Part shown: piece by piece, positions 3,015 to 30,049 of the stretch
How the letters are laid out: every line of letters begins with the position of its first letter
Numbering within the stretch: the stretch's first letter is position 1
Source of the DNA: Pseudomonadota bacterium
GTDB lineage: Bacteria > Pseudomonadota > Gammaproteobacteria > Steroidobacterales > Woeseiaceae
Reading direction: 5' to 3'
Assembly: GCA_039025835.1 (NCBI GenBank)
Contig: JBCCNM010000002.1
Span: 116 to 64,115 of the forward strand
DNA: 64,000 bases
Notes under the pieces: generated by a model
What the model was told of the DNA's origin: nothing
The model's database searches: none
Seen by the model: only the letters and a program-made list of their open reading frames with translations
Program-made: the position numbers and the translations under genes

Positions 3015-4160
3015 ATGTTCAGCCTGTTCCTGCTAGCCTTGTCTCGATACCTGTCCCTGCTCGTCATGGCGGTGGCCGCGGTATTCGATCGACGCCGACG
3101 GATAAGCGGACGGTTGCTCGTCTTTGTGCTGACACCGTTGTTCATCATTGCCCAGCTGCTGACGTGGGTGTTCTGGCTGCTGGACGAGGTGTTTTTCTCA
3201 CGCTATCGCGATGTAGAGATTCGGGAGCCGCTGTTTGTGATCGGCCCTCCGCGCACGGGTACCACCTTCATGCACAAGGTCCTCGCTGCCGACGAACAGA
3301 CCACAACCTTTCGTCTTTGGGAGTGCCTGTTCGGGGTCACAATCTGCGGGCGCAAACTGTGCCGCGGACTCGTATGGCTCGACCGGCGATGTGGTCGCGC
3401 GGTCTCCAAGCTGGGGGCACGCTGTCTGCAGGGACTGCAGTCGTCGATGGACGAGGTGCATCCTCTTGGGCTCGCCGAGCCGGAGGAGGACTTCCTGCTG
3501 TTCCTGCCGTTGGCGTGCTGTTTCCTGATCTCGGTGCCATTTCCGGAAGCTCGCTGGCTGTTTGCTTTTTCACGATTCGATACGAGTGTGTCACCACGCG
3601 ATCGCAAGCTGTACCTGCGCTGGTATCGGCGCTGTATCCAGAAGCACCTGCACATGAACGCGCCGGACGCGCGATTCCTGTCCAAGAACGCATCGTTTGC
3701 TGGCACGGTGAACAGCCTGCTGGGCGAGTTTCCGGACGCCCGCATCATCAGCACCTGGCGTGACCCGATGGAATCCGTTCCATCCCAATTGAGCTCGCTT
3801 CGACCCGCGCTGGGCGCACTGGGGTTTTCACGTTACGACGAGACATTCAAAACAGCGCTGGTTGACCAGATGGTGTTCTACTACACCCACCTCGGCACCG
3901 CGGAGCGACTACAGCAGCAGCGCATCGCCCGCATCGATACGCTGGCCATGCGCGAGCACCTCGAGCGAAGCGTCCGAGAAGCGTTTTTCAAGCTTGATCT
4001 CGACGTGTCGGACAGCCTCGCTCAAGAACTTGAACAACGCGCGGAAGCGTCCCGACGGCACAGCTCGGCCCACGCCTACTCGCTGGACGAATTCGGGCTC
4101 GACGAGGAACTGCTAAGATCGCGTTTTGATCTCGACCCCCCCGAGTCGAAACCCGGGTAA
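3015..4160 (+). CDS. membrane-anchored PAPS-dependent sulfotransferase
   Basis: Track ORF is 2931-4160. ATG 3015 starts two hydrophobic helices (MFSLFLLALSRYLSLLVMAVAAVF.., LLVFVLTPLFIIAQLLTWVFWLL). A 5'-PSB loop GPPRTGTTFMHKVL and a 3'-PB-like RFLSKNASF follow. Confidence 0.65.
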   Translation: MFSLFLLALSRYLSLLVMAVAAVFDRRRRISGRLLVFVLTPLFIIAQLLTWVFWLLDEVFFSRYRDVEIREPLFVIGPPRTGTTFMHKVLAADEQTTTFRLWECLFGVTICGRKLCRGLVWLDRRCGRAVSKLGARCLQGLQSSMDEVHPLGLAEPEEDFLLFLPLACCFLISVPFPEARWLFAFSRFDTSVSPRDRKLYLRWYRRCIQKHLHMNAPDARFLSKNASFAGTVNSLLGEFPDARIISTWRDPMESVPSQLSSLRPALGALGFSRYDETFKTALVDQMVFYYTHLGTAERLQQQRIARIDTLAMREHLERSVREAFFKLDLDVSDSLAQELEQRAEASRRHSSAHAYSLDEFGLDEELLRSRFDLDPPESKPG

Positions 4161-7627: not shown

Positions 7628-8105
7628 TATACGGTTTGACCGAGTTAATCAGGACGTCGGCATCGCAGGGCTTTTCGAGACAACCAGTGACGGGAATGTC
7701 GCCAAGCTCCTGGCGAACGACATGCTCTTCGTCGACACTGAGAACGATGATGTTTGCGCCTGGCATAAGCGACAGCGTCTCCACGATGGTTTCGGGTCCG
7801 GACATGCCGGGCATAGACATGTCCTGCAAGATAACGCCGATCGTGGCTCCATGCATCTGCACCTGATTGAGGGCATCGAGGCCGTTGTTCGCCTGCAGGA
7901 CATTGAGACCGGCGTTCTCCAAAATCTCGACAATAAGGCCCCGGACGAGGTCGTGGTCATCTACCACGAGCACGGACTTGGGTCGTGCCTGAGAGTTCGG
8001 TCCGGTAATAGGCAGGTCTCCGACGGCCAGGTTGGGTGCAACTGCTTTGCTCGGACGCCTAGATTCTGGCACAGAGCCCTTGGCAGTAAAAGCGCCTCGG
8101 GACAA
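7620..8105 (-). CDS. single-domain response regulator (CheY-like receiver); start uncertain
   Basis: Receiver motifs VLVVDDHDLV ... ILQDMSMPGMSG ... PVTGCLEKP. The roughly 45-aa N-terminal extension is unsupported. The stop overlaps the GlpD-like start by 8 nt. Confidence 0.75.
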   Translation of the reverse strand: MSRGAFTAKGSVPESRRPSKAVAPNLAVGDLPITGPNSQARPKSVLVVDDHDLVRGLIVEILENAGLNVLQANNGLDALNQVQMHGATIGVILQDMSMPGMSGPETIVETLSLMPGANIIVLSVDEEHVVRQELGDIPVTGCLEKPCDADVLINSVKPYIV

Positions 8106-11556: not shown

Positions 11557-12549
11557 ATGACGCGAATTGCAATCATTGGTGCCGGCCTGGCCGGACTCGT
11601 TCTCGGCCGTCAACTCAGTGCACATCACGAGGTGACGTTGTTCGAAAAAGCCCGCGGTGTCGGTGGCCGCATGGCAACGCGCTATGCCGGAGAATTCCGC
11701 TTTGATCACGGCGCGCAATTCTTCACCGCCCGCAGCCGTCGGTTTCGTGATTTCCTGGCGCCTTTTATCGCTGAGGGTAGCGTCGCGCCCTGGTCAGCGC
11801 GGTTTGCCGAGCACACGCGCGCCGACATCACGGCGGCGCGTCAGTGGGGCGACGAGCACCCGCACTTCGTCGGCGTGCCAGGCATGAACGCTCTGCCAAA
11901 ACGACTCGCAGATGATCTCGATATTCGGCTACAAACCCGCATTGTTGCAGCGACACCGTCCGCTGCTGGCTGGCAACTCGTTGACGAGCATGCCGCCGAA
12001 CACGACGTTGACTGGCTGATCGTGACGGTACCCGGGCCGCAGGCCGCAGAGCTGCTGGCCGAGCCGATGCCGGACGCTGCCCGACAGGCGTCGACTGGAA
12101 TGAAGGCTTGCTACGCTGTGATGCTCGGCTTCGATGAACCCCAAACGACCGGTTTCGACGCCAGTCGCGTTCTCGATGCCGACATCAGCTGGATGTCCGT
12201 CAACAGTTCAAAACCGGGGCGCGACATTCCGTTCACGATGGTCGTGCACGCCACCAACGCCTGGGCCGATGCCAATCTTGGTCTGCCGCTGGCCGACGCG
12301 AAGCGGCACCTGTTGTCGGAGTTTGAGGCGGTTAGCGGGATAGACCCCGGTGTTGCAGTGCACAGCGACATCCATCGCTGGCGGTATGCCAATACCGGCA
12401 AACAGGACAGTTCGGGTTACGTATTGGATGTTGAACAGCGACTCGGGCTGTGCGGCGACTGGCTGATTCGCGGCCGGGTGGAAGCCGCGTTTCAGAGCGC
12501 GATGCGCCTCGCGGATCGTTTAGGCGACGTCCTCGTCAGCGATCGTTGA
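11557..12549 (+). CDS. NAD(P)/FAD-dependent oxidoreductase (renalase/amine-oxidase-like)
   Basis: ATG 11557 gives MTRIAIIGAGLAGLVLGRQL...FEKARGVGGRMATR, a dinucleotide-binding fold. The upstream part of the track ORF is antisense to nei. Confidence 0.7.
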   Translation: MTRIAIIGAGLAGLVLGRQLSAHHEVTLFEKARGVGGRMATRYAGEFRFDHGAQFFTARSRRFRDFLAPFIAEGSVAPWSARFAEHTRADITAARQWGDEHPHFVGVPGMNALPKRLADDLDIRLQTRIVAATPSAAGWQLVDEHAAEHDVDWLIVTVPGPQAAELLAEPMPDAARQASTGMKACYAVMLGFDEPQTTGFDASRVLDADISWMSVNSSKPGRDIPFTMVVHATNAWADANLGLPLADAKRHLLSEFEAVSGIDPGVAVHSDIHRWRYANTGKQDSSGYVLDVEQRLGLCGDWLIRGRVEAAFQSAMRLADRLGDVLVSDR

Positions 12550-17492: not shown

Positions 17493-17585
17493 GTTCTCCC
17501 TCTCAAAGCCAAGGCCACCCATCGCCTACGTTGCACAGTATAATATGCAGCGGCGCTGCGCCCGCAGCATAAGGACAAATACGGT

Positions 17586-19130
17586 ATGGAAAAGCCAGCA
17601 ACGGCGGTCGTAATTGGCAGTGGGTTTGGCGGTCTCGCGGCTGCTGTCCGGCTCGCCGCACGAGGCGTCAAGGTCACTGTTTGCGAGCGACTGGACGCCC
17701 CTGGCGGACGAGCCTACGTTTATCGCCAGGACGGCTATACCTTTGACGCCGGCCCCACGATCGTCACTGCACCGTTTCTTCTCGAGGAACTGTGGGAACT
17801 GTGCGGTAAACGCCTGTCCGACGATATCGATCTGCGCGAGCTGAACCCGTACTACACGATCCGCTTCGATGACGGCAGCCACTTCGACTACAGCGGTGAT
17901 CACGAAGCGATGAAGCGGGAAGTCGCCAAATTCAACCCGGACGATGTCAATGGTTACGAGCGCTTCCTGGAGGCCAGCGCATTGCTGTACAGGGTGGGTT
18001 TCGACAAGTTGCTGCACGTGTCGTTTGGCTCCTTCGCTCGCATGTTGAAGGTCCTGCCAGACCTGATACGCGCGCAATTCTATCGCTCCGTGCACAGTCT
18101 CGTGGCCAGCTACATAAAACATCCGAAACTCAGGCGCGTATTCAGTTTTCACCCGCTGCTGGTCGGCGGCAATCCGTTCAGCACGACCGCCGTTTATGCG
18201 TTGATCGCACAGCTTGAACGCAAGCACGGTGTGCATTTCGCGATGGGTGGTACAGGCGCTCTTATCAACGGCCTCGTCGGGCTGATCGAGTCCCAGGGTG
18301 GCACAATCCGGTACAACGCCTCGGTCAGTCAAATCGTCGTGGAAGGAACTCGCGCGGTCGGTGTAAAACTGGAGTCAGGCGAACAGCTTGACGCTGATAT
18401 CGTTGTATCCAATGCGGATTCGGCTACGACCTACAAACATCTGCTGGCGGATTTTCCCCGACGTCGCTGGACGGACAGAAAGCTGGAGCGTGCACGCTAC
18501 TCCATGAGCCTGTTCGTTTGGTATTTCGGAACCGATCGTCGCTACGATGACGTGCCACATCACATGATGCTTCTCGGTGAACGATACGAAGCCCTGCTAA
18601 CGGATATTTTTAAGCGTAAGCACCTGGCTGAAGACTTTAGCCTGTATCTTCACCGCCCCACAGCAACGGATACGTCTCTGGCACCGGAAGGTTGCGATGC
18701 GTTCTACGTACTGTCGCCGGTGCCGCATCTGGACAGCGGTGACGACTGGAATCAGATCGCAGATCAATACCGGCAAAAGGTCCAGGAGGCTCTCCAAGAC
18801 ACCGTTCTACCGGAGCTCGAACAGCACATCGCAGCCTCGCACATGCTAACACCGCTGGATTTTCGGGAACGTTTGTTTTCGGTCAAGGGTGCTGCATTCG
18901 GCCTGGAACCTGTCCTGACCCAAACGGCCTGGTTTCGACCGCACAATCAGAGTGAGGAAGTTGATGGCCTTTACATCGTCGGTGCCGGTACGCATCCGGG
19001 TGCCGGTCTTCCTGGCGTAATCTCTTCGGCCAAAGTCCTGGACGATGTTATCCCGGGGCTTAGCGGACAGAGCCAGCCAAGTCCTGCGCAATGCTCTCCG
19101 CAGCAAGTCGACCCGACAGGGCTGTCATAG
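17586..19130 (+). CDS. crtI: phytoene desaturase
   Basis: 514 aa. N-terminal AVVIGSGFGGLAAAVRLAARG, ..FDAGPTIVTAP.. and C-terminal LYIVGAGTHPGAGLPGVISSAK are hallmark CrtI motifs. Confidence 0.92.
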   Translation: MEKPATAVVIGSGFGGLAAAVRLAARGVKVTVCERLDAPGGRAYVYRQDGYTFDAGPTIVTAPFLLEELWELCGKRLSDDIDLRELNPYYTIRFDDGSHFDYSGDHEAMKREVAKFNPDDVNGYERFLEASALLYRVGFDKLLHVSFGSFARMLKVLPDLIRAQFYRSVHSLVASYIKHPKLRRVFSFHPLLVGGNPFSTTAVYALIAQLERKHGVHFAMGGTGALINGLVGLIESQGGTIRYNASVSQIVVEGTRAVGVKLESGEQLDADIVVSNADSATTYKHLLADFPRRRWTDRKLERARYSMSLFVWYFGTDRRYDDVPHHMMLLGERYEALLTDIFKRKHLAEDFSLYLHRPTATDTSLAPEGCDAFYVLSPVPHLDSGDDWNQIADQYRQKVQEALQDTVLPELEQHIAASHMLTPLDFRERLFSVKGAAFGLEPVLTQTAWFRPHNQSEEVDGLYIVGAGTHPGAGLPGVISSAKVLDDVIPGLSGQSQPSPAQCSPQQVDPTGLS

Positions 19131-20556
19131 GGACGCCCGGCCCCGGATGAACCGTACCACCGGCGAAATACAAACCGGGCTGCTTTGAACGACTGCCACC
19201 GCGCCGAAAAGAGCCGGCCCACCCATGTGTGGGCCAACCGTAAATCGCGCCCTCACTGCCTGGAAACCTGACGGCGAAATCCTGAGGTGCAGTCAGCGTA
19301 GCCTCGGCGGTATCGATATGTAGTCCATGACGATTCAGCAGACCAAACACACGGTCCTCAAAAACGCTGATCTCATCGTTCGACAGTCGCCTTGGGGGTG
19401 CATTCATCAAAACAAAAAGGCGCTCTGTACTTTCATCCCCGCGTTGCGGGCCGATGTCGCTGCCGGTCATCGGTCGATCTTGTGCACACACATAAAGTGT
19501 CGGTTCGTCACAGACCTGCTGCTGATCAAAGATCGCTGCAAACTCCGCACGATAGTCCCCTCCGAAAAACACAGTGTGATACTGCAGCGGAAAACCGCTG
19601 GCTCGCGCGCTTAGACTCCAGGTCAACGCGGACAGCGAACGCGCCTCCTTTCTGCGATCCGGTACAGCACGCGTCAATGCGTCGCCGAGCAAGCCCGCTG
19701 ACAAGGCATTGATATCTCCATTGAAGACCACCGCTGCAGCATCTATCGACTCACCGCTTTCCAGCAATACGCCCTGCACTTTTCCGCGCCTGAGACGTAT
19801 TTCATCGACGCGTTCACCCAATCGGACGCTGACACCACGCTCCGCCGCGAGTTTCGCGAGCGCGTCGGCGAATCGCTGCATGCCACCTTTAACCGCCCAA
19901 ACCCCCGCTTGCTCAGCATGGGCGATCAGCATCAGGGTCGCTGGTGATGCCATCGGCGACGAACCACAGTAAGTCGCGTAGCGGGCGAAAAGCTGGCGCA
20001 ACCTGGGGTCCGTAAAGACTCTCCCAAGTTCATCCCACAAGGAAACAAAGGGCTTTGTCTCGAGCAGTCGCCGTGGATGCCGCAGGCCAACGTTGACAGT
20101 CAAGCCAGCCAGTGTTGGCCTTTGCGTCTGCATGAAACCTGCGTCAAGCGTATCGAATACCCGTGCAGTTTTGTCTGTAAACTTCCGGTACGCCTGCGCG
20201 TCAGATTGACCGGCAAAATCGCGAATCGCCTCGATGGAACGATCCACATCAGCAAACAAATCAAGAGAGCTGCCGTCCAGCCAGCTGTGGCGAGCGAGAC
20301 AGTCCGCCTGCTGAAGATCGACAATGTCATCCAGCGTGGTACCCAGCTTGTCCATCAAGGCGTCGAACACCCAGCGCATGGTAAAAACGGTAGGCCCGGA
20401 GTCCACGCCGCCGCTGGACGTCGCCACCTCCCTCATCTTTCCGCCGGGCTGGTCATGCTGCTCGATCAATGACACATCGAAACCGCGCGAGACGAGTTCA
20501 AGTGAGGCCGTTAGTCCGCCGATCCCCGCGCCCACGACAACGACGTTGTTCTTCAT
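19060..20556 (-). CDS. crtD: 1-hydroxycarotenoid 3,4-desaturase (methoxyneurosporene dehydrogenase)
   Basis: 498 aa CrtI-family flavoprotein. VVVVGAGIGGLTASLEL, FARYATYCGSSP and YFAGGTVHPGPGVPMTALSG match the CrtD branch. PGC context supports the call. Confidence 0.8.
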   Translation of the reverse strand: MKNNVVVVGAGIGGLTASLELVSRGFDVSLIEQHDQPGGKMREVATSSGGVDSGPTVFTMRWVFDALMDKLGTTLDDIVDLQQADCLARHSWLDGSSLDLFADVDRSIEAIRDFAGQSDAQAYRKFTDKTARVFDTLDAGFMQTQRPTLAGLTVNVGLRHPRRLLETKPFVSLWDELGRVFTDPRLRQLFARYATYCGSSPMASPATLMLIAHAEQAGVWAVKGGMQRFADALAKLAAERGVSVRLGERVDEIRLRRGKVQGVLLESGESIDAAAVVFNGDINALSAGLLGDALTRAVPDRRKEARSLSALTWSLSARASGFPLQYHTVFFGGDYRAEFAAIFDQQQVCDEPTLYVCAQDRPMTGSDIGPQRGDESTERLFVLMNAPPRRLSNDEISVFEDRVFGLLNRHGLHIDTAEATLTAPQDFAVRFPGSEGAIYGWPTHGWAGSFRRGGSRSKQPGLYFAGGTVHPGPGVPMTALSGRLAAESIAQDLAGSVR

Positions 20557-21980
20557 GCGCTAAGGCGCACCGCTTCAACGCGACGTAGCCGACAGATTAT
20601 CTGCTCGGCCGGTCTCGTCGTCAGCCGTGAAACGGGTCGCACTAACCCGGGAGACTCCACATCGACGTCATAGCGCCGCAGCAGTGAGGCAAGAATCAGG
20701 CCTGCCTCGATCGTTGCAAATGCCGCGCCCACGCAGACCCTGGGTCCGGAACCGAATGACATCAAAACACCTTTGTCGTCCGCTCGATCGAATCGATCCG
20801 GATCAAAACACGCTGCGTTGCGCCACAGTAGCTCGCTGCGATGGGAGGTCCACGGCGAAATCATGATCATCGCACCGCGCTTGACCTGCAGATCGCCAAC
20901 GCGTGTCGATTCTGCCGCCACGCGCGGAATAAAGGTGATCGGCGGATAAAGCCGTAACGCCTCGCGAAACACGTTTCTTACCAACGGCAATTGCTTGACG
21001 TGTCGAAACTCGATCGGGCCGTCACCGACAGCCCCGGCGATCTCATCTCGCAGTCGTCGAACCATTTCGGGATGCTGGGCGAGAATAAAAAATGCCCAGG
21101 TCAAAGCGCTGGCCGTTGTCTCATGCCCGGCGAGGAAAAACACGCCAAGCTGATCGATGAGTTCCTCGCGCGTGAAGCCTTTGCCCGTGGACTCGTCGCG
21201 AGCCTGAATGACGGCTGAGACAATATCGTCATGCGCATCCGGATTTTCCAATCGCGGATCAACCAGGTCACCGATGTGACGACGAATACGTTCACAGGCC
21301 AGGAGCACACGATCCGGTTGCTTCACGTCTGCCCACGGTTTACCGAATATCAGCTGACCGACATTCACACTCGCGACGCTGCGCTCAAAGTCAGCAAAGG
21401 CATCAAACACTTCTCTCGCCGTTTCCTCGGCCAGCGGGACCGAGAACACCGTTCGACAGATCACATCGGCGGTCAATTCGCTCATGGCGAAATCCAGCGA
21501 GAACGCCTCACCGGACGCGGCCCGTGCGTCCAGTTTTTTTATGTAGTGATTCACGGCATCGGACATGGAGCTAAAGGCCGCACCGATGCGCATGTGCGAG
21601 AACGCAGGGTCTATCATCGCCCTTTGGCGTCGCCACTTCTCTCCGCTGGACACGAAAATCGAATCGCCAACCAGTGGCGCAAGCGCACCCACCATCAGGT
21701 CGTTCTTGGGAAAGACATCCAGCGGATCTGTTGCGAGCTGTTTGGCGAGCTCGGGGTCATTGACCAGCTTTATTGATCGTCGCGAATAGCCGAGTGTCGT
21801 GAACGGTTTGCTGTAGGCCTCAGCCGGAACCAGACTCAGCAGGTCCCCGTCACCCTGACGCATTACCCGCAGCAACGACCGCAACGGTGTCAGTGGTTTT
21901 GGTGCCGGCGGTCGAAACAGTCCCTCGCTGCCTCGCACTGACGTTTCGTTTTGATCTCCCACACAACGTATTATAAGCAA
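20553..21980 (-). CDS. cytochrome P450
   Basis: I-helix FFLAGHETTASAL, EALRLYPP (ExxR) and the heme-thiolate loop FGSGPRVCVGAAFA are present. The stop overlaps the crtD ATG (ATGA). The TTG start is uncertain. Confidence 0.9.
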   Translation of the reverse strand: MLIIRCVGDQNETSVRGSEGLFRPPAPKPLTPLRSLLRVMRQGDGDLLSLVPAEAYSKPFTTLGYSRRSIKLVNDPELAKQLATDPLDVFPKNDLMVGALAPLVGDSIFVSSGEKWRRQRAMIDPAFSHMRIGAAFSSMSDAVNHYIKKLDARAASGEAFSLDFAMSELTADVICRTVFSVPLAEETAREVFDAFADFERSVASVNVGQLIFGKPWADVKQPDRVLLACERIRRHIGDLVDPRLENPDAHDDIVSAVIQARDESTGKGFTREELIDQLGVFFLAGHETTASALTWAFFILAQHPEMVRRLRDEIAGAVGDGPIEFRHVKQLPLVRNVFREALRLYPPITFIPRVAAESTRVGDLQVKRGAMIMISPWTSHRSELLWRNAACFDPDRFDRADDKGVLMSFGSGPRVCVGAAFATIEAGLILASLLRRYDVDVESPGLVRPVSRLTTRPAEQIICRLRRVEAVRLSA

Positions 21981-21992
21981 TGACGAGAGTGT

Positions 21993-23153
21993 TTGGCCTG
22001 CATCCAGGGGACAGATATCAAGAGTGTTTTGCTGACGTCAGGCCGTCTTCCGGTCAGTCTCGAATTGGCACGAGCGTTTCATGCAGCCGGCTGGCGAATC
22101 GTGGTCGCCGACCCGTGGCCCATGCATCTCTGCCGCATGTCAAGCTGCGTCGCGGTGACAGTCGACTTACCGGCACCACAGGACAATCCTGAGCACTTTG
22201 CCGCGACCCTCGAAAAACGATGCGTCGACCATGACATCGATTTGGTGGTACCGGTATCCGAAGAAACGCCCTACGTCGCCGCGCTGCGCGAACGCGCCGT
22301 TCCGGTGTTCACATCAGCGCCGGACACGGTGCTGACACTGCATGACAAACTGGGCTTTATCCGTCGCGCCGCACAGGCCGAACTTTCGGTCCCCGCGACG
22401 GTGAGAGCAGACCACGATAGCAAGACCATTCGCCAGACCGCTTTCGTCAGAAAACCGCGCTTTTCCTGTTCCGGCCGCGACGTCAGCTTTCATGCTGCCG
22501 GCAGCGACGTCCAGGAGGACTCGGCTTTCATTGTCCAGCAGCGCATCGAAGGAGACGCCATCAATGTGTTCGGCATCGCAGTAGACGGAGTGCTGCGGCT
22601 GTCGTCGGCTTATCGGGGCCGACTCGTCGACGGCAGTGTGGCCATCGCGTTTGAGCGTGAAGAACAGGCGGATGCCTGCACGTCGTGGGCGTCTCGTTTT
22701 GTGGCAGCAACGGGCTACACCGGCCTGATTGCCTTCGATTTTATCGTCGACGATGACGGTATTGCCTGGCCGCTGGAATGCAATCCACGCGCCACCAGCG
22801 GTATTCATTTCCTGAACCCGGCAGCGATTGTCGCCGCGATCACCAACGATGAGCTGCCGATTGACCACGTCAAGCCCGTCACCCGCATGGCAGAAAAGTG
22901 GTCGTGCTTTACCCGCTATCTCGCCTCTCTGGGCACACGCGACGCCACGCGACAGGCCTGGCAGGTGCTCACCGGATTCAGCGATGTGAGCTGGCAACGC
23001 GATGATCCCTGGCCTTTTCTCGCCATGCCGTTCAACAGCTGGCGCATACTTCTGAAAAGCCGACAAAAAAACCACACTTTTGCGAGCGCGGCCGTCGCCG
23101 ATATCGAGTGGCGTCCCACCGAACGGGCCGGAGGTATGTGTGACGATCGTTGA
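21993..23153 (+). CDS. ATP-grasp domain protein
   Basis: 386 aa with a pre-ATP-grasp Rossmann-like N-terminus (VLLTSGRLPVSLELARAFHAAGWRIVVAD). The C-terminal half ..IAFDFIVDDDGIAWPLECNPRATSGIH.. is typical of ATP-grasp ligases. TTG start uncertain. Confidence 0.7.
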   Translation: MACIQGTDIKSVLLTSGRLPVSLELARAFHAAGWRIVVADPWPMHLCRMSSCVAVTVDLPAPQDNPEHFAATLEKRCVDHDIDLVVPVSEETPYVAALRERAVPVFTSAPDTVLTLHDKLGFIRRAAQAELSVPATVRADHDSKTIRQTAFVRKPRFSCSGRDVSFHAAGSDVQEDSAFIVQQRIEGDAINVFGIAVDGVLRLSSAYRGRLVDGSVAIAFEREEQADACTSWASRFVAATGYTGLIAFDFIVDDDGIAWPLECNPRATSGIHFLNPAAIVAAITNDELPIDHVKPVTRMAEKWSCFTRYLASLGTRDATRQAWQVLTGFSDVSWQRDDPWPFLAMPFNSWRILLKSRQKNHTFASAAVADIEWRPTERAGGMCDDR

Positions 23154-24153
23154 TGAGCGCGGACCGCTGCAGATTCGACGAAGCCAAACCCTCGAAGCGG
23201 CGTTCGCTGACTTGCTGTCGCGTACGCGTTTCGGCACGCACAAGCTGACCTATCGGCGACGTCGTGTGTCCGAGTCTCTGACGCGTCTGTCCAATACCCA
23301 CTATTTCAGTCTGTACGACGGAGACCATCTTGTCGGTGGATACGCCTTGACGCCGACCGACATCATCAGGGATACGGCAACACACAAGGCGCTTTATCGT
23401 CACGCACTGTTTGTCGATGACCGCTACCAGCAGCGGGGGTTGGGACACTGGCTGGTCAATGCCGCGCTGGACGCGGCAACAGACAACATTGAGTTCAGCT
23501 TTGGCAGCATTGAACTTGGCAATCGACGCTCGTCGGCTGTCGTCGACAAAGGTTCAGCCTGCACAATCGGTCACCTGCGATCCGAGCTGATTTACCGACA
23601 GTGGACGCGACGTTCTGCGTTGGTCGCATTCAACCCGGAGGAAGCACTCATCCGCGCGGCGGTAGACGACAGTGAATCAGACTGCACTTACCGTTTTGCA
23701 AGCCGTCGTGATGCGCCCTACTACGGTGTGCTGCTCGACGGACAGCTCGCTGCCGGCGCGAGTGCACGTCTCAACAGCCTGGACCTTCGATCGCCGGGGC
23801 CCGGTATCGGCCGGGCCTATGCATCACTGGTCCGATTTTTGCCAGCAGCGAGACGCCGTTTCGACCCCGCCGACTTCCGCTTCGTCAGCCTGTCCGATGT
23901 CGTCGTGGCTGCAAACAGCGGCAACGCCTGGAATGCGCTTGTCAGTCACATCCTGTATGAGTTTGGCGCGCACATGGCCGGCGTCACCCTCGATCCACGA
24001 CGCATTGCCTACCAGCGCCTGTGCGATCTCGGACTGCTGGGACGATTCGCTCGTGCTACGCGTGAAGAGTTTAAGTTGGTGGCGAGGCCACATTCGTCTG
24101 CCGCGCCCTCGCTCGACTCTGCCATCAGTGGACTCGTCCCGCTGGACATGTAG
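23140..24153 (+). CDS. GNAT-like N-acyltransferase domain protein with an uncharacterised C-terminal domain
   Basis: GTG 23140 is preceded by GGAGGT and overlaps the ATP-grasp stop by 14 nt. HALFVDDRYQQRGLGHWLVNAAL matches GNAT motif A (Q/RxxGxG/A). The remaining roughly 200 aa are not recognisable. Confidence 0.55.
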   Translation: MTIVDERGPLQIRRSQTLEAAFADLLSRTRFGTHKLTYRRRRVSESLTRLSNTHYFSLYDGDHLVGGYALTPTDIIRDTATHKALYRHALFVDDRYQQRGLGHWLVNAALDAATDNIEFSFGSIELGNRRSSAVVDKGSACTIGHLRSELIYRQWTRRSALVAFNPEEALIRAAVDDSESDCTYRFASRRDAPYYGVLLDGQLAAGASARLNSLDLRSPGPGIGRAYASLVRFLPAARRRFDPADFRFVSLSDVVVAANSGNAWNALVSHILYEFGAHMAGVTLDPRRIAYQRLCDLGLLGRFARATREEFKLVARPHSSAAPSLDSAISGLVPLDM

Positions 24154-24212
24154 GCCGCGACGCTGGCAACGTCTTACACTTACGCGGCGAATGCTGTTTC
24201 AGGATACCGGCT

Positions 24213-25094
24213 TTGACAAAGACACTTACGCCCGCAGTGAATGCTGAGCGAAAGCTTATCCAGTCGGATGGCCACGACATCAGTTACTACGTCGCCGGAA
24301 CGGGTGACCCGGTCTTGCTGGTCCACAGCATCAACGCAGCGGCCTCGGTTTTCGAAGTAAAACCTGTGTTCGAGGCGCTCGCGGCGGACTACCAGGTGTA
24401 CGCCCCGGATCTGCCGGGCTTCGGTTTTTCGGATCGCTCTGATCGCCGATACAGCATCGATCTGTATACCCAGGCCATCAGCGACATGCTTGAGACGATC
24501 GGCGGCGATAAACCAGTGCACGTACTCGGCTTGTCGCTTTCATCGGAGTTCGTTGCTCGCCAGGCAAGTCGCAGTCCGGAACGTATTCGCAGCCTTGCGC
24601 TGGTCTCACCGACCGGTTTTGATCGGGGTGCCAACCGACTACGAAGCGATGAGGGAGTCACTCGGGAAAACACCATCGCCGCAGGACTGACAGGCATCCC
24701 TGGCCTCCGATCCGGCCTGTTCGGGCTACTGGTTCGACCGGGTTCCGTGCGCTATTTCCTGAAACGCACATTCGGCTCAAACACCGTCGATGAAGCCCTT
24801 ACTCGCTACTGCATCCTGACAGCTGCCCAGCCCGGCGCAATGTATGCACCCCTGGCATTTATCTCCGGCCGACTGTTTTCCCGCGATATCCGGACCGTCT
24901 ACGAATCGCTGCAGATGCCGGTGTGGCTCGGCCACGGCATTCGCGGCGATTTCCAGGACTATTCGGAAACTGCCTGGACCGAGACGCGTCCCAACTGGAC
25001 AGTCCGGGAATTCAACACGGGCGCGATCCCCTACTTCGAAGACCCGAGTCGCTTCTTGACGGAATATCGGCGATTCCTCGCCGGAGTCGACTAG
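24213..25094 (+). CDS. alpha/beta-fold hydrolase
   Basis: 293 aa. TTG start with AGGA 7 nt upstream. PVLLVHSINAAA oxyanion region, nucleophile elbow HVLGLSLSSEF (GxSxS variant) and a C-terminal His region are present. Confidence 0.75.
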   Translation: MTKTLTPAVNAERKLIQSDGHDISYYVAGTGDPVLLVHSINAAASVFEVKPVFEALAADYQVYAPDLPGFGFSDRSDRRYSIDLYTQAISDMLETIGGDKPVHVLGLSLSSEFVARQASRSPERIRSLALVSPTGFDRGANRLRSDEGVTRENTIAAGLTGIPGLRSGLFGLLVRPGSVRYFLKRTFGSNTVDEALTRYCILTAAQPGAMYAPLAFISGRLFSRDIRTVYESLQMPVWLGHGIRGDFQDYSETAWTETRPNWTVREFNTGAIPYFEDPSRFLTEYRRFLAGVD

Positions 25095-25352
25095 CGTCAG
25101 GACGCATTGCAGCGTCGATCCAGCCGGACCGCAGCAACACACGAGAGATCGATTTGTCGCTGAAATTTGCGGACTTTTCTCAAATTTCGCCGAAATTCGC
25201 GGCAAGAAAGGCAGGAATAGCGTGTTTTTTCCACGTCAACCTAGAAAAGCCGGCAAACAGGTCTATGCTTGTCCACCGAGGCCCGACGGATGGTATCAAT
25301 GGTGATCCGGTCGTCAGGACGCTGACCTGATTGTCCGGTACGCAACGAAAAT

Positions 25353-25383
25353 GCGCGTCGCGACCGTTGCAGCCGCGACGCGC
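25353..25383 (-). terminator. intrinsic-terminator-like hairpin (distal copy) downstream of the puf operon
   Basis: Perfect 10-bp GC stem GCGCGTCGCG/CGCGACGCGC with an 11-nt loop. On the minus strand it is followed by ATTTTCGTT. Confidence 0.6.
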
Positions 25384-25569
25384 AATGCTAACTGTCCGGT
25401 TCAGGGTTTCGCGAGGGATGGATACGCTGTATTCGCGCCGGTTCTGCTTAAGAAGCGAGGTGAGACCGCAGTGGGCGGTCGGGCAACGAGCTTCTTGCAC
25501 ATAACCGAGATCCGTCTCCAGACAGTTCGCGGGGTTCGTTCTGTCGCACTCTCCGTTGGTTGAGAGAAG

Positions 25570-25600
25570 GCGCGTCGCGACCATTGCGGCCGCGACGCGC
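25570..25600 (-). terminator. GC-rich stem-loop (proximal copy), weak terminator or RNA-stabilising/processing hairpin
   Basis: Same perfect 10-bp stem. On the minus strand it is followed by CTTCTCTCAACC, which is pyrimidine-rich but not a U-tract. Confidence 0.45.
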
Positions 25601-25617
25601 AAAGCTAACCGTCCAGG

Positions 25618-25959
25618 TCAGGGTTTCGCGAGGGATGGATACGCTGTGTTCGCGTCGGCGTTGCCTGTCGGCGTTTGTGTGTCTTCAAAAGAGGACACAC
25701 AAGCGGCCGATGAGACGTCACCGAAATCCGTTCCCAGACGGTTCGCGGGGTTCAAACGAAGCTCTGTCGAACAATCCGAAGACACCGCACAAGGCGGCTT
25801 GACTCCGGTCTGTTCTTCATCGACTTCCGTCCATGTCATGTCGGTCTTCGAATCTGAATCCACAACGGGACTGGCGTGACCCGTTGTGTAGACCGCGACC
25901 GCTGACAGACAGATTCCCGTCATCAGCGTCGCAACCAGTTTCAGATCCCTGTCGTTCAT
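25618..25959 (-). CDS. hypothetical 113-aa protein with N-terminal hydrophobic anchor, coupled to pufM (coding status uncertain)
   Basis: The ATG lies 4 nt after the pufM stop. N-terminus is MNDRDLKLVATLMTGICLSAVAVYTTG. There is no CxxCH heme motif, so it is not PufC. The 3' half lies inside repeat unit 2. Confidence 0.35.
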   Translation of the reverse strand: MNDRDLKLVATLMTGICLSAVAVYTTGHASPVVDSDSKTDMTWTEVDEEQTGVKPPCAVSSDCSTELRLNPANRLGTDFGDVSSAACVSSFEDTQTPTGNADANTAYPSLAKP

Positions 25960-25963
25960 CGGG

Positions 25964-26899
25964 CTACGGTGCCGCCGAGTAGTACGGCACCATGTTGTGT
26001 TCCTGCGCCCACAGGAACCAGTTATCCACCACAGTGCCGGTCAGCAGGATGCCGATCCCGCCGGTGATCCCGGTCAGGAAAGCGAACCACCACGCCCAGC
26101 GGTGAATCGATTCATACGTGGCATTGAAGCCCATCGTCCATCGCCAGAACAAAGCGCCACGTTCTGCAGCAGTACCGCGATCAACGATCTGATCGATTTC
26201 TCGATGAGAACCGTAATTACCGGAGGCGACAATCGTTGCGCCGTGCATGGCGAATAAGACCACGGAACCCAACAGGAAGAAGATGGACAACATGTGGAAC
26301 GGGTTGTACATCAGGTTGCCGTATCGCAGTGAGAATAACTGTGTCCAGTCGAGGTGCGGGAAGATCCCATAAGGCACAGCCTCACTCCAGGTTCCCAGCA
26401 TGATCGGACGAATGAGACCCAGCACCAGGAACAGCCAGATTGCGCCGGCAAACCCCCATGCGACGTGTGTGCCCATGCCCAACTGAACTGCTCGCCGATA
26501 CATTCTGACCCACCAGGCAAGCACTGCAATCAGCAAACACATGCCGGTCAAAATGAACCAGCCGCCTTCAGCCAACGGTGGAAAGCCCAGACCGTATTCA
26601 GCGGCGGGCGGATCCAGCGACAACCAGAACAGCTGACGAACGAACTGAACAGGGTCCCAGTCCACGGACGCCCACATGTTCAGCCCGACAATCTCAAACG
26701 CTGCAATACCGAACAGCAAGGAAACCAATCCCGATACACCAAGATATCCAGGACCGACCTGCGCTTCACCGAATATGCCGAGAAGCCGGGAGATGCGTGC
26801 GCCGCCGCGTTCGAAAATATTGCCCGGAGGATGGGGCACACCCATGTCGGGAGCGCCGTGCACCTGCACGCGGTTAAAGATGTTTTGGTAAGTAGCCAT
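25964..26899 (-). CDS. pufM: photosynthetic reaction centre M subunit
   Basis: 311 aa. [21 protein letters not shown].. N-terminus and ..[23 protein letters not shown].. match PufM throughout. Confidence 0.97.
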
Positions 26900-26908
26900 A
26901 GCGCTCCC

Positions 26909-27736
26909 CTAACTCCATATTCCGAGGTTCAGCCACCAGTCGTACCAGGACTCCCAGCTGCCTTCCCAATACGGACCGCTGATGACGATGCAGAGCGCGC
27001 TCCACAAACCGGCATTGACGGCCAGGAACAGGCCAAGTCGATGGATACCGAGCGAACCGATCGAATACTGAATCGTGTCGCGAAAGTAGCTGTTCTCGTG
27101 ATAGGCCGTTTTGACCGTATCGCCCTTCTTGTGCGGGTTGGTTGCTGACAGAATCGCGCCGCCGTGCATACCCAGGGCCAAAGTCGTCGTGAACAGGAAG
27201 GTCACAGCGACGATATGGGCCGGGTTGTACAGAAAGTTGACGTAGGCATAACCGGTGTTTACGACCCAGTCGAGATGACTCGTAATCCCGTAAGGGAAAC
27301 CGTAACCCCAGGCACCCATCAGGACAGGACGAATAACATTCAAGGTCACATACGCTGCAACGGCTGCCGCAAAAGCAATCGGAACGTGGTAGTTCATCCC
27401 GAGCTTCTTGCTGATCTCTGCCTGCCGCATGACCCAGGATGTAAAGGCCCCGACCGCACAAATCGTGATCAGCTGCCACAGACCGCCTTTAGCGATCGGG
27501 GCGAACTGCAGACCGTAAGTAATATCGGGCGGTGGTAAATGGATCGCCCACAGGTTCCATGTGGGACCTGTCGCGATGCCGTAGAAAATGAAAAACGTAC
27601 CCAGCAGAGTAAAAAAGATGGTTGTTACACCAAAAAACCCGACGTAGAACGGCCCGACCCAGAAGTCGAACAGATCACCGCCGAATAGCGTGCCACCTCG
27701 TACCCGGTACTTCTCCTCAAAGCTCAACATAGACAT
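26909..27736 (-). CDS. pufL: photosynthetic reaction centre L subunit
   Basis: 275 aa. [35 protein letters not shown] and ..[28 protein letters not shown].. match PufL. Confidence 0.97.
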
Positions 27737-27794
27737 GGTGATACCCCTGTGCGCAGAAAGTCAGCTCCACCGCCACCGGTAACCACACCGGCGT

Positions 27795-27820
27795 CCCGTT
27801 GTATCCGCCGACAACGGCGG
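27795..27820 (-). promoter_or_regulatory. pufA-pufL intercistronic stem-loop(s)
   Basis: CCGCCG-ACAA-CGGCGG (27805-27820), or the alternative CCGTTGT..ACAACGG pairing. It sits in the 104-nt gap between pufA and pufL. Confidence 0.5.
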
Positions 27821-27840
27821 AGCTTACTACTGCAGTCAAC

Positions 27841-28038
27841 TCAATCTTGAGCGACCAATATTTCTTCGTCTCTGGCTTGCTGAACCTCAGCCGCAGCATA
27901 CGGTTCGCCAGAAAGCCAGCTGCCGTAACGCGGCGTGCTGAGCTGTACGAAGTGATTCACCAGCACCATGAAAAAGGCAAACGCAAGTACGCCCACCAAT
28001 CCACGGCGTGGATCAACCATTAGCCAAATTCTCCACAT
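27841..28038 (-). CDS. pufA: light-harvesting 1 (B870/B880) alpha polypeptide
   Basis: 65 aa. MWRIWLMVDPRR... followed by a TM helix with the BChl-ligand His in ..MVLVNHFVQLST.. Position between pufB and pufL. Confidence 0.9.
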   Translation of the reverse strand: MWRIWLMVDPRRGLVGVLAFAFFMVLVNHFVQLSTPRYGSWLSGEPYAAAEVQQARDEEILVAQD

Positions 28039-28083
28039 GACTAGTACTCCTTCTCGTTAGTTACGATGACAGGTTAACCAGGT

Positions 28084-28230
28084 TCAGAACCACGGACGCC
28101 ATGCCCATATCAGGATATGAGCGACGATCGTCACGGCTACAAAACCCAGGGTCCCCTGCATGAAGTACTTGTGGAACTCTTTGGCCTCCCTTGATGTTAG
28201 ACCTGAAGCAGATCTGTTTTCGTCAGACAT
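28084..28230 (-). CDS. pufB: light-harvesting 1 beta polypeptide
   Basis: The internal ATG at 28230 is preceded by GAGGAG. The 48-aa product is MSDENRSASGLTSREAKEFHKYFMQGTLGFVAVTIVAHILIWAWRPWF, with the canonical beta-chain EAKEFH and AHxLxWxWRPW motifs. Confidence 0.93.
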   Translation of the reverse strand: MSDENRSASGLTSREAKEFHKYFMQGTLGFVAVTIVAHILIWAWRPWF

Positions 28231-28334
28231 TTTTTTACTCCTCAACACAAGTCGACATGGTTGGGTGTGACCGCGACAACCCTCGCGGCAGGGGTTTTGT
28301 GCCAGCGGCATGCACCACTGTCACAGAACTCGGT

Positions 28335-28559
28335 TTACGCAGAAAAAACAGTTCCCGTAATTGCGGTGGACATCTTCTCGGCTTCACGAAGCACGGATCG
28401 ATAGCCTGTTGACGGTGCCGACCAGGGGCGCCATCGCCACCCGGACAGACGAGCCACAATGGCGACAGGCAGCAATACCGAGAAACAAACCAGCCAGATA
28501 AACCGGCAGGACCAGACTTCGTCTTTGCGAAGCCCTCTCGTGAGTGTGTCTCTGTCCAT
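28335..28559 (-). CDS. pufQ: PufQ-like small membrane protein
   Basis: 74-aa ORF. ATG 28559 is preceded by AGGAGGA. It sits between bchZ and pufB exactly like Rhodobacter pufQ. Architecture matches: basic N-terminus, one TM helix, C-terminal ..REAEKMSTAITGTVFSA. Similarity is judged from memory. Confidence 0.5.
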   Translation of the reverse strand: MDRDTLTRGLRKDEVWSCRFIWLVCFSVLLPVAIVARLSGWRWRPWSAPSTGYRSVLREAEKMSTAITGTVFSA

Positions 28560-28606
28560 ATGTCTTCCTCCTGCGTGCGCGTCCGGCAACCCGAACGCAT
28601 TTATTT

Positions 28607-30049
28607 TTATGCGGCAACTCGATCGCGACTCACAGCTTCCAGGCATTCGCGCGTCACTTCGTCGAGCCCCTTGTTTCGGGCAAGGTTTTCAGCGGCATCT
28701 CGCAGCTGCTTGGTCGCCGAAATTCGAATCAACACCGGTTTGGTCGCGACCAGGTCCTCCAGCGCCTGCTGCGCTTCGGCCTGCCAGTGCAGTTCCTGCG
28801 CTGCCGGTGTCGCCTCGCCCTTATCCATTTGCGTGCCGAGCGGCAGAATGTTGAACAAGGCATCGAACAGCGCATTGCAAAACTCCTGCATGACATACGT
28901 GGCACCGGCATATCCCATGAACGGAGTTCCGGTATGTCGCCGGATGACGGCACCCGGGAACGAGGCCGGGATGTACACACCGTGTGCACCGTTTTCGGCG
29001 AGATACATGCGCTCGTTGTAACTGCCAAACACAACCAGCGGATTGCTCTCTTTCAGCGCTTCGCGCACGGCCGCGTTATCGGTCTTGGCTCCCGCTCGCC
29101 GCTCAAACGTCATCGCGCAGGGCATGCCAAGGTCGTTTTCGAGGTAATTGCGAAGTCCGCGCGTGTAGGTCTCATTTGCGACGATCGCTACGCTGGCCGT
29201 GCCAAAGAAATCCTGTGTGACCGAGCGCCAAAGATCCCAAAGCGGCTTGATCGTTGTGTGTTTCTCGCGCTCGATGAACGGCTCGGGATCCAGCCCGAGA
29301 ATATCGCCGAGTTCGCGCAGGAATTTTGTGGTGCTGTGCAGACCGATCGGCGCCTGCAGATATGGTCTTTCCAGTCCCTCGCAGAGATCACGACCGAACT
29401 CGCGGTACATGCAGACATTGGCTTCTGCATTGGCGAGCTGTGGCACATCCCGCAACGAACTGCCCAGCGGGAATGTCAGGTTGACCTCGGCGCCGATGCC
29501 TTCGACCAGGCGACGGATTTCGGCCAGATCAGACGGCATGTTGAACATGCCGTAGCTTGGACCGATGATGTTAACGCGCGGCTTCTCGCCGTCTTTGCGC
29601 GGTTTCAGGGGTGGCACAATGCCTTTCTTGGGCCCCCACTCTTTCCACAACCAGAACATGGCGCGATCCGCCGACTGCCACTGGTCCTCGTCAATCGTGC
29701 GTGGCAGGAAGCGCTTTATCTTGGTGCCTTCCGGGGTCACACCACCGCCAATCATTTCGGCTATGGAACCGGTGACAACCACACTCGGCTTTTTCGGATC
29801 GAGTGTGCCGTGCGCCCGTTTCATCGCGCCTTCCGTTCCGTGCTGCCCGAGCTCTTCCTCACCGAGCCCGGTGACCACGATGGGTAACTCATGTGGCGGC
29901 AGTCCGTCGGTGTAATGCAAAACCGACGTCACCGGCAGGTTTTCGCAGCCGACCGGGCCATCGATAATGGTCTGCAAACCCTTCACCGCAGCAAATACGT
30001 AAACGCTGCCCCAGTAGCCGCCGGCACGATCGTGATCAAGCACGAGCAC
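28607..30049 (-). CDS. bchZ: chlorophyllide a reductase subunit Z
   Basis: GTG 30049 is preceded by GGAGG and gives [40 protein letters not shown], the canonical BchZ N-terminus. It overlaps bchY by 14 nt. The track ORF extends to 30112. Confidence 0.93.

Follow-up and report, generated by a model that had tools for sequence, protein, structure and literature searches.

The window analysed here, the whole of a 64-kb stretch of DNA, carries on its minus strand a puf operon in the order bchZ-pufB-pufA-pufL-pufM, met at its 3' end by a convergent hydrolase gene. An identical PufM protein is encoded on contig JBCCWW010000002.1 of assembly GCA_039192875.1. The original prediction placed an element at the 3' end of this operon; it is indeed found there, and also in related photosynthesis gene clusters. 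The region is organized as follows.

24213-25094, plus strand: alpha/beta-hydrolase gene (PF00561, PF12697), convergent to puf
25095-25344, no strand assigned: spacer from the distal terminator to the hydrolase stop, poorly conserved
25345-25539, minus strand: distal unit, non-coding, duplicated from the 3' segment of pufC and its terminator
25540-25569, minus strand: inter-unit linker, with a small hairpin CUCUC-N8-GAGAG at 25549-25566
25563-25756, minus strand: proximal unit, a decayed pufC 3' coding segment (D2, centre, D1), stop, 17-nt spacer and hairpin
25618-25959, minus strand: ORF113, pufC remnant of 113 aa, beginning 4 nt past the pufM stop
25964-26899, minus strand: pufM, the last intact puf gene (PF00124, E 3.7e-100)

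The pufC remnant and its duplicated 3' end

An 870-bp gap had been described in the place of pufC; this does not hold, the ORF at 25618-25959 (minus strand) being what is left of that gene. A functional pufC was defined by four CXXCH motifs, a length of ~330 aa and a match to Pfam PF02276 (CytoC_RC). With its 113 aa, no CXXCH heme motif and no Pfam match, ORF113 is therefore a remnant and not a working pufC. Its N-terminus is signal/TM-like, while its C-terminal 43 amino acids are homologous to the end of PufC (58% identity with the intact PufC of locus L004 over this length, BLASTP E 2e-14) and terminate at the original stop. Intact pufC genes occupy the same slot 3' of pufM in L004, L011, L013, L015, L016, L017 and L018. 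The decay here has removed ~660 nt and all heme sites. L004/L005 possess the tandem pair along with an intact pufC (333 aa, PF02276), which ends within the proximal unit.

Each unit comprises the last 43 pufC codons (the heme-4 segment), a 17-nt spacer and the predicted intrinsic terminator of pufC. The peptide order of this 3' module is YPANRLG...CxxCH...ADAITAYPSLAKP-stop, and the conserved blocks D2 and D1 originated, in that order, as the peptide motifs YPANRLG and ADAITAYPSLAKP-stop. A repeat search agrees with the proposed tandem duplication of 217 bp, with a GC hairpin closing each unit: a 95-nt block (25347-25441 and 25564-25658) displays 89% identity at a spacing of 217, and a 39-nt block (25499-25537 and 25715-25753) 85% identity at a spacing of 216. 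Against a 12-unit profile, nhmmer scores the proximal unit at 182 bits (E 1e-54) and the distal one at 190 bits (E 4e-57). The proximal unit has its stop codon at 25618-25620; the distal unit exhibits a 1-nt insertion, a heme motif decayed to CPTAH and a former stop at 25401-25403. The different reading frames noted earlier across the conserved blocks are real where minus-strand ORFs cover the 95-nt block, as the 1-nt insertion shifts the distal copy there; they are not real for the 39-nt block, in which one frame is common to both units, nor for the plus-strand ORFs, which keep the same relative frame over the 95-nt block. Of the central inverted repeats reported for the two units, the proximal one was recovered by the repeat search (25672-25705) and the distal one, AAGAAGC...GCTTCTT, is visible in the sequence. 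The linker hairpin takes in the U/C tail of the proximal terminator, an arrangement also found in L002 and L004 with different loops; the linker itself is 66% identical between the window and L002. Taken together, the alignments identify the units as derivatives of the pufC 3' end and its terminator, and place the duplication of the module before the decay of pufC.

The carriers form one clade of uncultured marine Pseudomonadota, one member of which is labelled Woeseiaceae. A 20-mer scan of 185,579 species genomes returned two matches, each with the tandem pair only, and a metagenome scan returned matches at pufC ends plus two chance hits. Loci L007 and L010 were rejected as carriers, their 20-mer matches lying in unrelated sequence. 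No further copy was found in the 64-kb window or in 237 kb of compared sequence, and viral contigs gave no match. The loci L008 and L017, with an apparent single unit, may be assembly collapses; L017 resembles a recombinant, and the contig of L009 breaks inside the repeat. To note, the tandem repeat seems to be a point of breakage or collapse in short-read assemblies. A literature search found neither an RNA element at the pufC 3' end nor puf clusters of Woeseiaceae described.

Conservation at the nucleotide level

Synonymous sites are saturated between the compared genomes, with an identity of 0.33-0.52 at 4-fold sites in pufM, pufL and the hydrolase gene. Despite this, the units remain 80-100% identical, the non-coding distal copy included: the distal unit of the window is 88-90% identical to those of L002 and L004, for which the 4-fold sites are at 0.42-0.51. 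Block D1 is 0.88-1.00 identical between compared genomes, and the distal centre 0.80-0.83 among the window, L002 and L004. The post-stop region and hairpin reach 0.94-0.98 among the two-unit lineages, and 0.60-0.77 in comparisons that involve one or both of the single-unit L015 and L011, in which the stems covary. Between the window and L002, identity falls to 0.38-0.52 in the flanking DNA and in the central part of the remnant ORF; the spacer at 25095-25344 is 52% identical with 69 gap columns, which is about the neutral level.

The same constraint is seen in the parental gene. Intact pufC genes display a synonymous third-position identity of 0.89 over their last 15 codons, compared with ~0.4-0.78 over the rest of the gene; against outgroup L013 the value is 0.20. 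In the outgroups L013/14 and L018/19 the peptide is kept but the nucleotides are not. L002/L003 have a disrupted proximal frame and have lost its stop codon, with D1 still conserved; the distal sense frame contains a stop in L009, and the variable columns of the distal unit fall on the three codon phases as 11/10/8, without codon periodicity. The claim that conservation operates on nucleotides or RNA thus stands, given the saturated 4-fold sites and the lack of periodicity in the distal unit, and the comparison indicates that present-day coding is not what constrains the units.

Could the units be neutral debris, pufC pseudogene fragments kept similar by recent duplication and loss or by gene conversion? 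They do come from pufC coding sequence, pufC is decayed here, gene conversion is possible in tandem repeats and L017 looks like a recombinant. This reading is nonetheless already contradicted by the sequence comparisons and has very little probability left: fixed proximal/distal differences recur in genomes with a 4-fold-site identity of no more than 0.42-0.51, the neighbouring DNA of the remnant and spacer has drifted down to 0.38-0.52, the distal centre holds its identity with no conversion partner, and helices are kept paired by compensatory changes (see below).

Predicted fold, strand and terminators

RNAalifold predicts a multi-helix fold of 48 pairs shared by 14 copies. The elements that matter below are, all on the minus strand:

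25734-25746: helix H1 5' strand, proximal (GCGAACCGUCUGG), pairing with 25604-25616 (RNAalifold)
25627-25654: helix H6 (CGCGA/UCGCG), proximal, closing the 18-nt C-rich loop ACACAGCGUAUCCAUCCC at 25632-25649
25604-25616: helix H1 3' strand, proximal (CUGGACGGUUAGC), immediately past the stop codon (RNAalifold)
25570-25600: proximal GC hairpin, the original pufC terminator (dG -27.5 kcal/mol)
25518-25530: helix H1 5' strand, distal (GCGAACUGUCUGG), pairing with 25387-25399
25410-25437: helix H6, distal, closing the loop AUACAGCGUAUCCAUCCC at 25415-25432
25387-25399: helix H1 3' strand, distal (CCGGACAGUUAGC), from RNAalifold and covariation
25352-25384: distal GC hairpin, 15 pairs of which 11 GC, the top terminator-like site in the region

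Covariance, which the original prediction proposed as a check, is found. Pair cells are paired at 94.8-95.4%, as compared to 30-38% in slid-alignment controls, and 13 pairs exhibit double changes, a result matched by 0 of 500 shuffles; the shuffle statistics overstate independence, because the copies represent ~8 independent lineages, several of them closely related. Helix H1 has 99-100% of its cells paired and compensatory double changes at two positions. Its proximal version is predicted with a pairing probability of 0.95, and single-sequence folds give 0.83-0.98 for H1. At column pair 17/148, CG is found in 7-8 copies and UA in 4; the C-G of the proximal unit becomes U-A in the distal unit in all four genomes in which both distal strands are available. 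The distal clade and L015 acquired these compensatory changes in H1 independently, and L016 displays a U·G intermediate.

Helix H6 and its loop never vary, and H6 is therefore without covariation support. The 18-nt C-rich loop (ACAGCGUAUCCAUCCC) is invariant, columns 104-131 are almost all invariant in the 14 copies, and the module contains 33 invariant nucleotides upstream of the hairpin. The predicted unpaired fraction of the loop is 87% in the proximal unit and 69% in the distal one. As for the strand, 95.4% of cells are paired on the sense strand vs. 85.1% on the antisense, with 70 G·U cells vs. 12 A·C cells, a comparison that is biased by the use of the sense strand for the structure prediction. 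Covariation supports the modelled fold, and the G·U asymmetry favours the puf-sense strand for it.

The module terminates in the GC hairpin. Exactly two sites of this pattern exist in the 64 kb (25353-25383 and 25570-25600), and none in 100 shuffles, in agreement with the two 10-bp GC stems, one per unit and 217 bp apart, that had been noticed first. The distal hairpin (dG -26.5 kcal/mol) is followed by the tail TTTTCGTTGC / AUUUUCGUU / UUUUCGUU, with 6 U. It had been likened to an intrinsic terminator on the minus strand, and its top score in the region and its tail TTTTCGTTGC agree with this. The proximal tail, CUUCUCUC, is weakly U-rich, with 4 U in its first 9 nt; the apex sequence of the terminator is GCUGCAACGG. 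U-rich tails are found in the puf direction only. The terminator stem covaries in L015 and L011, and outgroup L013 possesses a homologous terminator with the same UUUCUCUC tail. The distal hairpin is likely the final intrinsic terminator of the puf operon. An anti-terminator pairing of D1 GCCGACGCG with the 5' arm of the terminator was considered and rejected, because the stem changes of L015 are compensated inside the hairpin and not in D1. A sigma-70 promoter scan of 24500-28800 found none, and hence no sign of a promoter belonging to the distal unit itself.

Function and relation to known 3' RNAs

The explanation that we favour, and hold to be probable, is that of a structured, pufC-derived RNA domain at the 3' terminus of the puf transcript, which would act as terminator and stabilizer and would possibly be released as PcrX-like fragments. 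The retention of the units after pufC decayed points to an undescribed regulatory or stabilizing RNA. The RNA would consist of H1, a variable central hairpin, H6 with its C-rich loop and the terminator, H1 being a long-range pairing of the ANRLG codons with bases just past the stop codon. Its tandem duplication preceded the split of the window lineage from its pufC-intact relatives, pufC collapsing later in the lineage of the window, L002 and L003 with both modules retained. Decay would have been confined to the heme-coding centre of the proximal copy, which in the window has become a new perfect hairpin. Part of the puf transcripts would end at the proximal hairpin with its weak tail and the remainder at the distal one, and the folded domain or domains would form a nuclease-resistant puf mRNA 3' end, recognized in a sequence-specific manner. 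As the upstream mRNA decays, one or two stable 3' fragments would probably persist, similar to PcrX, with their loop exposed. This domain leaves part of the function unexplained, as a plain terminator and stabilizer would not need 33 invariant nucleotides.

The first alternative, possible but with the balance of probability somewhat against it, is a pair of trans-acting, 3'-derived sRNAs: fragments of ~190 nt ending at each hairpin, released by an endonuclease from the puf transcript and pairing through the loop ACAGCGUAUCCAUCCC with one or several mRNAs, in the style of PcrX. The element, on the sense strand at an mRNA 3' end, has its terminator in common with that mRNA, which fits the architecture of 3'-end-derived sRNAs (PMC9438474). 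It is conserved beyond coding needs, with a predicted accessible conserved stretch, the loop being invariant where synonymous sites are saturated, and it was retained and duplicated independently of pufC function. C-rich loops of the UCCC/CCUC type are typical seeds binding Shine-Dalgarno sequences, and the loop resembles these. No target came forward, however. On both strands of the 64-kb window the best match of the loop outside the element (12356-12405, minus strand) is unremarkable at -22.5 kcal/mol and does not lie at a gene start. A scan of the puf mRNAs of six genomes revealed no complementary target that is conserved. The recurrent match in the pufB leader, at about -70, is an 8-nt complementarity to a hairpin, and L015 and L016 have lost this complementarity; this leader was rejected as a target, its hairpin being conserved for its own reasons, also in outgroups without the element. 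Recurrent matches within the pufL/pufM coding sequences were likewise discarded, as they are not common to the window and L002. The translation-initiation regions of 19 genes of the window locus and of their counterparts in L002 (14) and L004 (12) gave no consistent signal. The lack of a detected internal promoter also counts against such sRNAs.

A purely cis-acting double terminator and 3' exonuclease barrier is unlikely to be the whole account. The hairpins would stop puf transcription ahead of the convergent hydrolase operon and shield the mRNA 3' end, the conservation upstream of them representing the site of a protein acting on puf mRNA. Strong hairpins (dG -26 to -27.5 kcal/mol) with U-rich tails in the puf direction, the convergent gene arrangement and the homologous terminator of L013 speak for it. 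According to the work of Belasco, Cohen and Klug, 3' and intercistronic stem-loops reportedly set the stability of puf mRNA segments in Rhodobacter capsulatus, and the GC-rich hairpins here similarly end the puf transcript, probably blocking 3'-5' decay as well as terminating. Those stem-loops are defined by structure only, whereas the window adds a ~130-nt fold and 33 invariant nucleotides upstream. Terminators and barriers need structure, not such invariant bases; a plain hairpin suffices in the outgroups, and the conservation of the whole module in the non-coding distal copy is left unexplained.

A bolder proposal, to be taken as tentative, is an RNA family of coding origin. The terminal 130 nt of pufC with their terminator would have become a structured RNA, trans-acting or recognized by a protein, that was duplicated into two paralogous 3'-derived sRNAs, outlived its host gene and regulates photosynthesis or other genes via the C-rich loop. 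If true, PcrX would have a non-homologous counterpart in gammaproteobacteria.

A DNA-level or coding element (a REP/MITE-like repeat, a site to which a protein binds on the DNA, or a small ORF on one or the other strand) is very improbable. The units share with REP/BIME short GC-rich palindromes in tandem in a convergent intergenic region, and their TCGCGA palindromes are possible protein-binding sites; unlike these repeats, they are confined in each genome to a single locus, which is invariably the 3' end of pufC/pufM, and have a coding origin. A dispersed repeat, whether REP/BIME or MITE-like, which had been raised as a point to check, was rejected, with two copies in the window, the puf locus alone in the genome and metagenome scans apart from the two chance hits, and no match in viral contigs. 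The antisense frame (MRVATVAAATR...) is open with an ATG start in all five distal units, and this ATG is absent from the proximal units and from L015, L011 and L016. On the basis of this frequent absence, of the phase counts and of the stop in L009, the idea that the distal unit holds a small protein-coding gene was rejected. Compensatory changes, like the G·U asymmetry, favour RNA. An Rfam 15 scan of 24000-29000 (E <= 10) returned chance miRNA and lncRNA matches only. Readings as SECIS, recoding element or riboswitch were dropped because nothing lies downstream to be regulated, because of this Rfam result and because L002/L003 lost the stop without loss of conservation.

Among known systems, PcrX is an RNA from the puf 3' end of Rhodobacter sphaeroides, thought to target pufX (PMC9438474). 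The window element resembles it as a candidate stable 3' fragment: it occupies the extreme 3' end of the operon, lies on the puf-sense strand and is closed by the operon terminator. It differs in that its host is of a gammaproteobacterial-type lineage with pufC and not pufX, that it overlaps and derives from the pufC coding end in two tandem copies, and that it has no complementarity found to its own puf mRNA and no Rfam match. Enterobacterial sRNAs overlapping coding 3' ends form the CpxQ, DapZ, SdhX, NarS and RaiZ class (PMC9438474). As in this class, conservation jumps at the end of the CDS, synonymous sites included, the terminator is common with the parental mRNA and the conserved stretch is predicted to be exposed. 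The module of the window is, however, larger (~190 nt), more structured and tandemly duplicated, and it outlives its parental gene, which is dead in one lineage.

The locus provides a comparative, sequence-level case in uncultured marine phototrophs, in which a folded module of ~190 nt is held by selection, twice over, across lineages saturated at silent sites. To our knowledge, nearly all that is known of how photosynthesis genes are controlled post-transcriptionally comes from Rhodobacter. It may therefore be asked whether RNA domains at the 3' end of puf operons constitute a general regulatory layer, how a coding segment is exapted into a non-coding RNA, and how reaction centres evolve after the loss of their tetraheme subunit.

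Units at the 3′ end of the puf operon

The locus, assigned to contig JBCCWW010000002.1 of MAG GCA_039192875.1, carries bchZ, pufB, pufA, pufL and pufM on its minus strand. An alpha/beta-hydrolase gene and, likewise on the plus strand, a GNAT and an ATP-grasp gene converge on these genes, and the repeats therefore lie within a convergent gap of 869 bp.

Features at the operon end
26909-27736, minus strand: pufL
25964-26899, minus strand: pufM
25618-25959, minus strand: pufC remnant ORF, starting 4 nt past the pufM stop, with a signal/TM-like N-terminus
24213-25094, plus strand: alpha/beta-hydrolase gene, converging on the puf genes

Repeat search recovered the tandem repeat of the original prediction as a 95-nt block (25347-25441 and 25564-25658, 89% identity, spacing 217) and a second block of 39 nt (25499-25537 and 25715-25753, 85% identity, spacing 216). 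The pattern of the predicted GC hairpin pair occurs exactly twice in the 64-kb window and in 0 of 100 shuffles. The distal hairpin, proposed to be a minus-strand terminator, is the top terminator-like site of the region (25384 to 25352, tail UUUUCGUU), the tail of the proximal hairpin (CUUCUCUC) being weaker. On either strand, the predicted folding of 25330-25965 is much stronger than that of shuffled sequence (z about -5.6), and no Rfam family matches the region.

The nature of the units emerges from fetched loci of close PufM relatives. L002 (PufM 96% identical) and L003 (89%) share both the gap and the tandem pair with the window. The pair, expected to be conserved in relatives, is also found in L004 (PufM 81%; identical in sequence to L005, from a MAG with the label uncultured Woeseiaceae), together with an intact 333-aa pufC (PF02276). 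Here, the proximal unit is the pufC end: its first block (D2) codes YPANRLGPDLGD, its centre the fourth heme site, CLTCHQG, and its last block (D1) ADAITAYPSLAKP, followed by the stop codon and, seventeen nt further, the GC hairpin. In L008, L017, L015, L011 and L016, pufC ends in a single-copy version of this module. In the window, the remnant ORF lacks any CXXCH motif and stops where the ancestral gene did; its final 43 residues are 58% identical to the PufC C-terminus (E 2e-14). The distal unit duplicates this pufC segment, with a 1-nt insertion and a heme motif decayed to CPTAH. The L004 pufC end, the remnant alignment and the distal copy therefore identify the “structured element” as the pufC 3′ coding end plus a terminator. 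In the gap of the original prediction, pufC is decayed rather than absent.

Compared to L004, the window pufC has lost about 660 nt, while L002 and L003 retain one CGSCH motif followed by a premature stop. The remnants of this lineage are 99-113 aa long (L002 6938-7237, L003 846-1145), and the tetraheme subunit is presumably missing from its reaction centres. As read from sequence comparison, duplication preceded the split of the pufC-less and pufC-intact lineages, and pufC decayed later. Because the first 28 codons of the remnant (TM/signal-like) share 68% nucleotide identity between window and L002, against 38% in the ORF middle, selection may still act on a small membrane peptide or on translational coupling to pufM.

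Three short contigs of one metagenome project are odd at the repeat: L009 (1-175) starts inside D2 of a distal-type unit, L017 (2286-2481) joins a proximal-type D2 to a distal-type post-stop region, yielding a C·A mismatch in helix H1, and L008 (1628-1823) consists of one clean unit. The tandem repeat was probably broken or collapsed during short-read assembly, leaving the copy number in these populations uncertain.

The genes converging on or neighbouring the puf operon (alpha/beta-hydrolase, GNAT, ATP-grasp, cytochrome P450 and two amine-oxidase/phytoene-desaturase-like genes) keep their order wherever the fetched sequence reaches (window about 17500-25094, L002 7763-15270, L004 4475-11985), and may serve pigment or lipid modification. 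In L008, L011, L017 and the outgroups L013 (7964-9244) and L014 (4061-5341), pufC faces a convergent bciB-like (FrhB_FdhB) gene, which overlaps the final 25 nt of pufC in the latter two; the window, L002, L004 and L015 lack it, and the hydrolase gene comes next directly. The spacer beside the hydrolase stop, elsewhere unconserved, harbors short TTTCGC/AAATTT-type motif repeats (window 25157-25193, L002 7681-7720), arranged as an inverted repeat (I5) in the window and a 20-nt direct repeat in L002/L003. Ahead of pufB (28084-28230), at a distance of roughly 70 nt, the leader carries a conserved hairpin, CCGCGAGGGUUUUCGCGG then ATGTCGACTTGTGTTGAGGAG (window about 28268-28302, minus strand). It is present in all relatives, outgroups included, its stem covaries in L018 (CCGUGA/UCACGG), and it probably represents a distinct 5′ element for regulation or stability of the puf mRNA.

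Constraint and fold of the module

In pufM, pufL and the hydrolase gene, identity between these genomes at 4-fold degenerate sites has fallen to 0.33-0.52, which is essentially saturation. The units lie far above this level, with D1 at 0.88-1.00 and the distal unit's private centre at 0.82-0.83 among window, L002 and L004. The post-stop region and hairpin reach 0.94-0.98 among two-unit lineages and 0.60-0.77 in comparisons that involve the single-unit L015 or L011, a low value because the stems of these two covary. Between window and L002, neutral-level stretches (remnant-ORF middle 0.38, proximal centre 0.52, spacer to the hydrolase gene 0.52) are surrounded by blocks 0.87-0.97 identical. Where pufC is intact, identity at synonymous third positions is 0.89 over the final 15 codons, as compared to about 0.4-0.78 in the rest of the gene (0.20 against L013). 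In the outgroups (L013/L014 and L018/L019), the peptide motifs survive and the nucleotide sequence does not, and protein constraint alone therefore gives no such pattern. The variable sites of the distal unit are spread over the codon phases (11/10/8), a stop interrupts its sense frame in L009, and the antisense ATG is absent from many copies. D1 is intact even in L002 and L003, whose proximal frame is disrupted and whose former stop codon has mutated. Conservation above neutral without a coding pattern therefore places the constraint on the nucleic acid itself, as had been proposed from the window.

RNAalifold was applied to 12 units (alignment A2), which cover only about 8 independent lineages.

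Helices of the predicted fold
H1, columns 11-23 with 142-154: coding-part GCGAACCGUCUGG pairs with CYGGACGGUUAGC directly 3′ of the stop
H3/H4: central hairpin
H6: CGCGA/UCGCG around an invariant 18-nt loop, UUACAGCGUAUCCAUCCC
Terminator helix: GC hairpin

Standard pairs fill 95.4% of pair cells on 12 copies and 94.8% on 14, with double changes in 13 pairs; none of 500 shuffles matches the fold values, and slid controls give 30-38%. H1 is paired in 99-100%: all four distal units with both strands present carry a C-G to U-A exchange, which occurs independently in L015, L016 showing the U·G intermediate. Covariation also occurs in the terminator stem of L015 and L011; H6, invariant in all copies, has no covariation support. 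Single-sequence folds give H1 a pairing probability of 0.83-0.98 and leave the invariant loop mostly unpaired. In the folding and covariance check suggested earlier, compensatory changes keep helices paired. On the structure derived from the sense strand, puf-sense is 95.4% paired vs 85.1% for antisense (70 G·U cells vs 12 A·C cells), and U-rich tails exist in the puf direction only.

A small hairpin, CUCUC-loop-GAGAG, directly follows the proximal terminator and is built with its U/C tail (window 25549-25566, minus strand). It is found in three lineages with a different loop in each (also L002 about 7346-7365, L004 about 4040-4062), and could adjust how much transcription continues into the distal unit.

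Putative function and relation to known RNAs

The dispersed-repeat reading, raised originally as a generic REP element, is rejected for the sequences scanned, in which copies occur at pufC ends only: an invariant 20-mer matched two of 185,579 species genomes, with the tandem pair alone in each; metagenome matches were at pufC ends, plus two unrelated chance ones; a 22-mer found no match in viral contigs, and an nhmmer profile no further copy in the window or in 237 kb of fetched sequence.

The analysis shows the origin, order of events, nucleotide-level selection, fold and strand of the module. In the proposed mechanism, the proximal hairpin would terminate part of the puf transcripts and the distal hairpin the rest. 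As a folded 3′ end of the puf mRNA, the module would resist nucleases and be specifically recognised; stable 3′ fragments of it might remain, as with PcrX, a product of RNase E cleavage in the puf 3′ UTR of R. sphaeroides (PMC9438474). The 33 invariant nucleotides, none of which a plain terminator would need, argue for sequence-specific recognition by RNA or protein. The terminator apex GCUGCAACGG (window 25370-25376 and 25577-25593 region), unaltered in L015 (about 8010-8020) despite the covaried stem below, may be a second short sequence specifically recognised. No conserved target was found in puf mRNAs, neighbouring start regions or the window, and an 8-nt stretch matching the pufB leader hairpin is lost in L015 and L016. 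We infer, with reasonable though not high confidence, a functional 3′-terminal RNA domain of the puf transcript; that this domain acts as a genuine trans-acting sRNA is rather doubtful.

In its working, the element would most closely resemble PcrX and the enterobacterial sRNAs overlapping coding-gene ends, a likeness that establishes no membership in any described family. It has no Rfam match, differs in host gene, is larger, more structured and duplicated, and derives from coding sequence since dead in one lineage. No earlier description was found in the literature. The evolutionary pattern of the element is clean and testable, its function putative.
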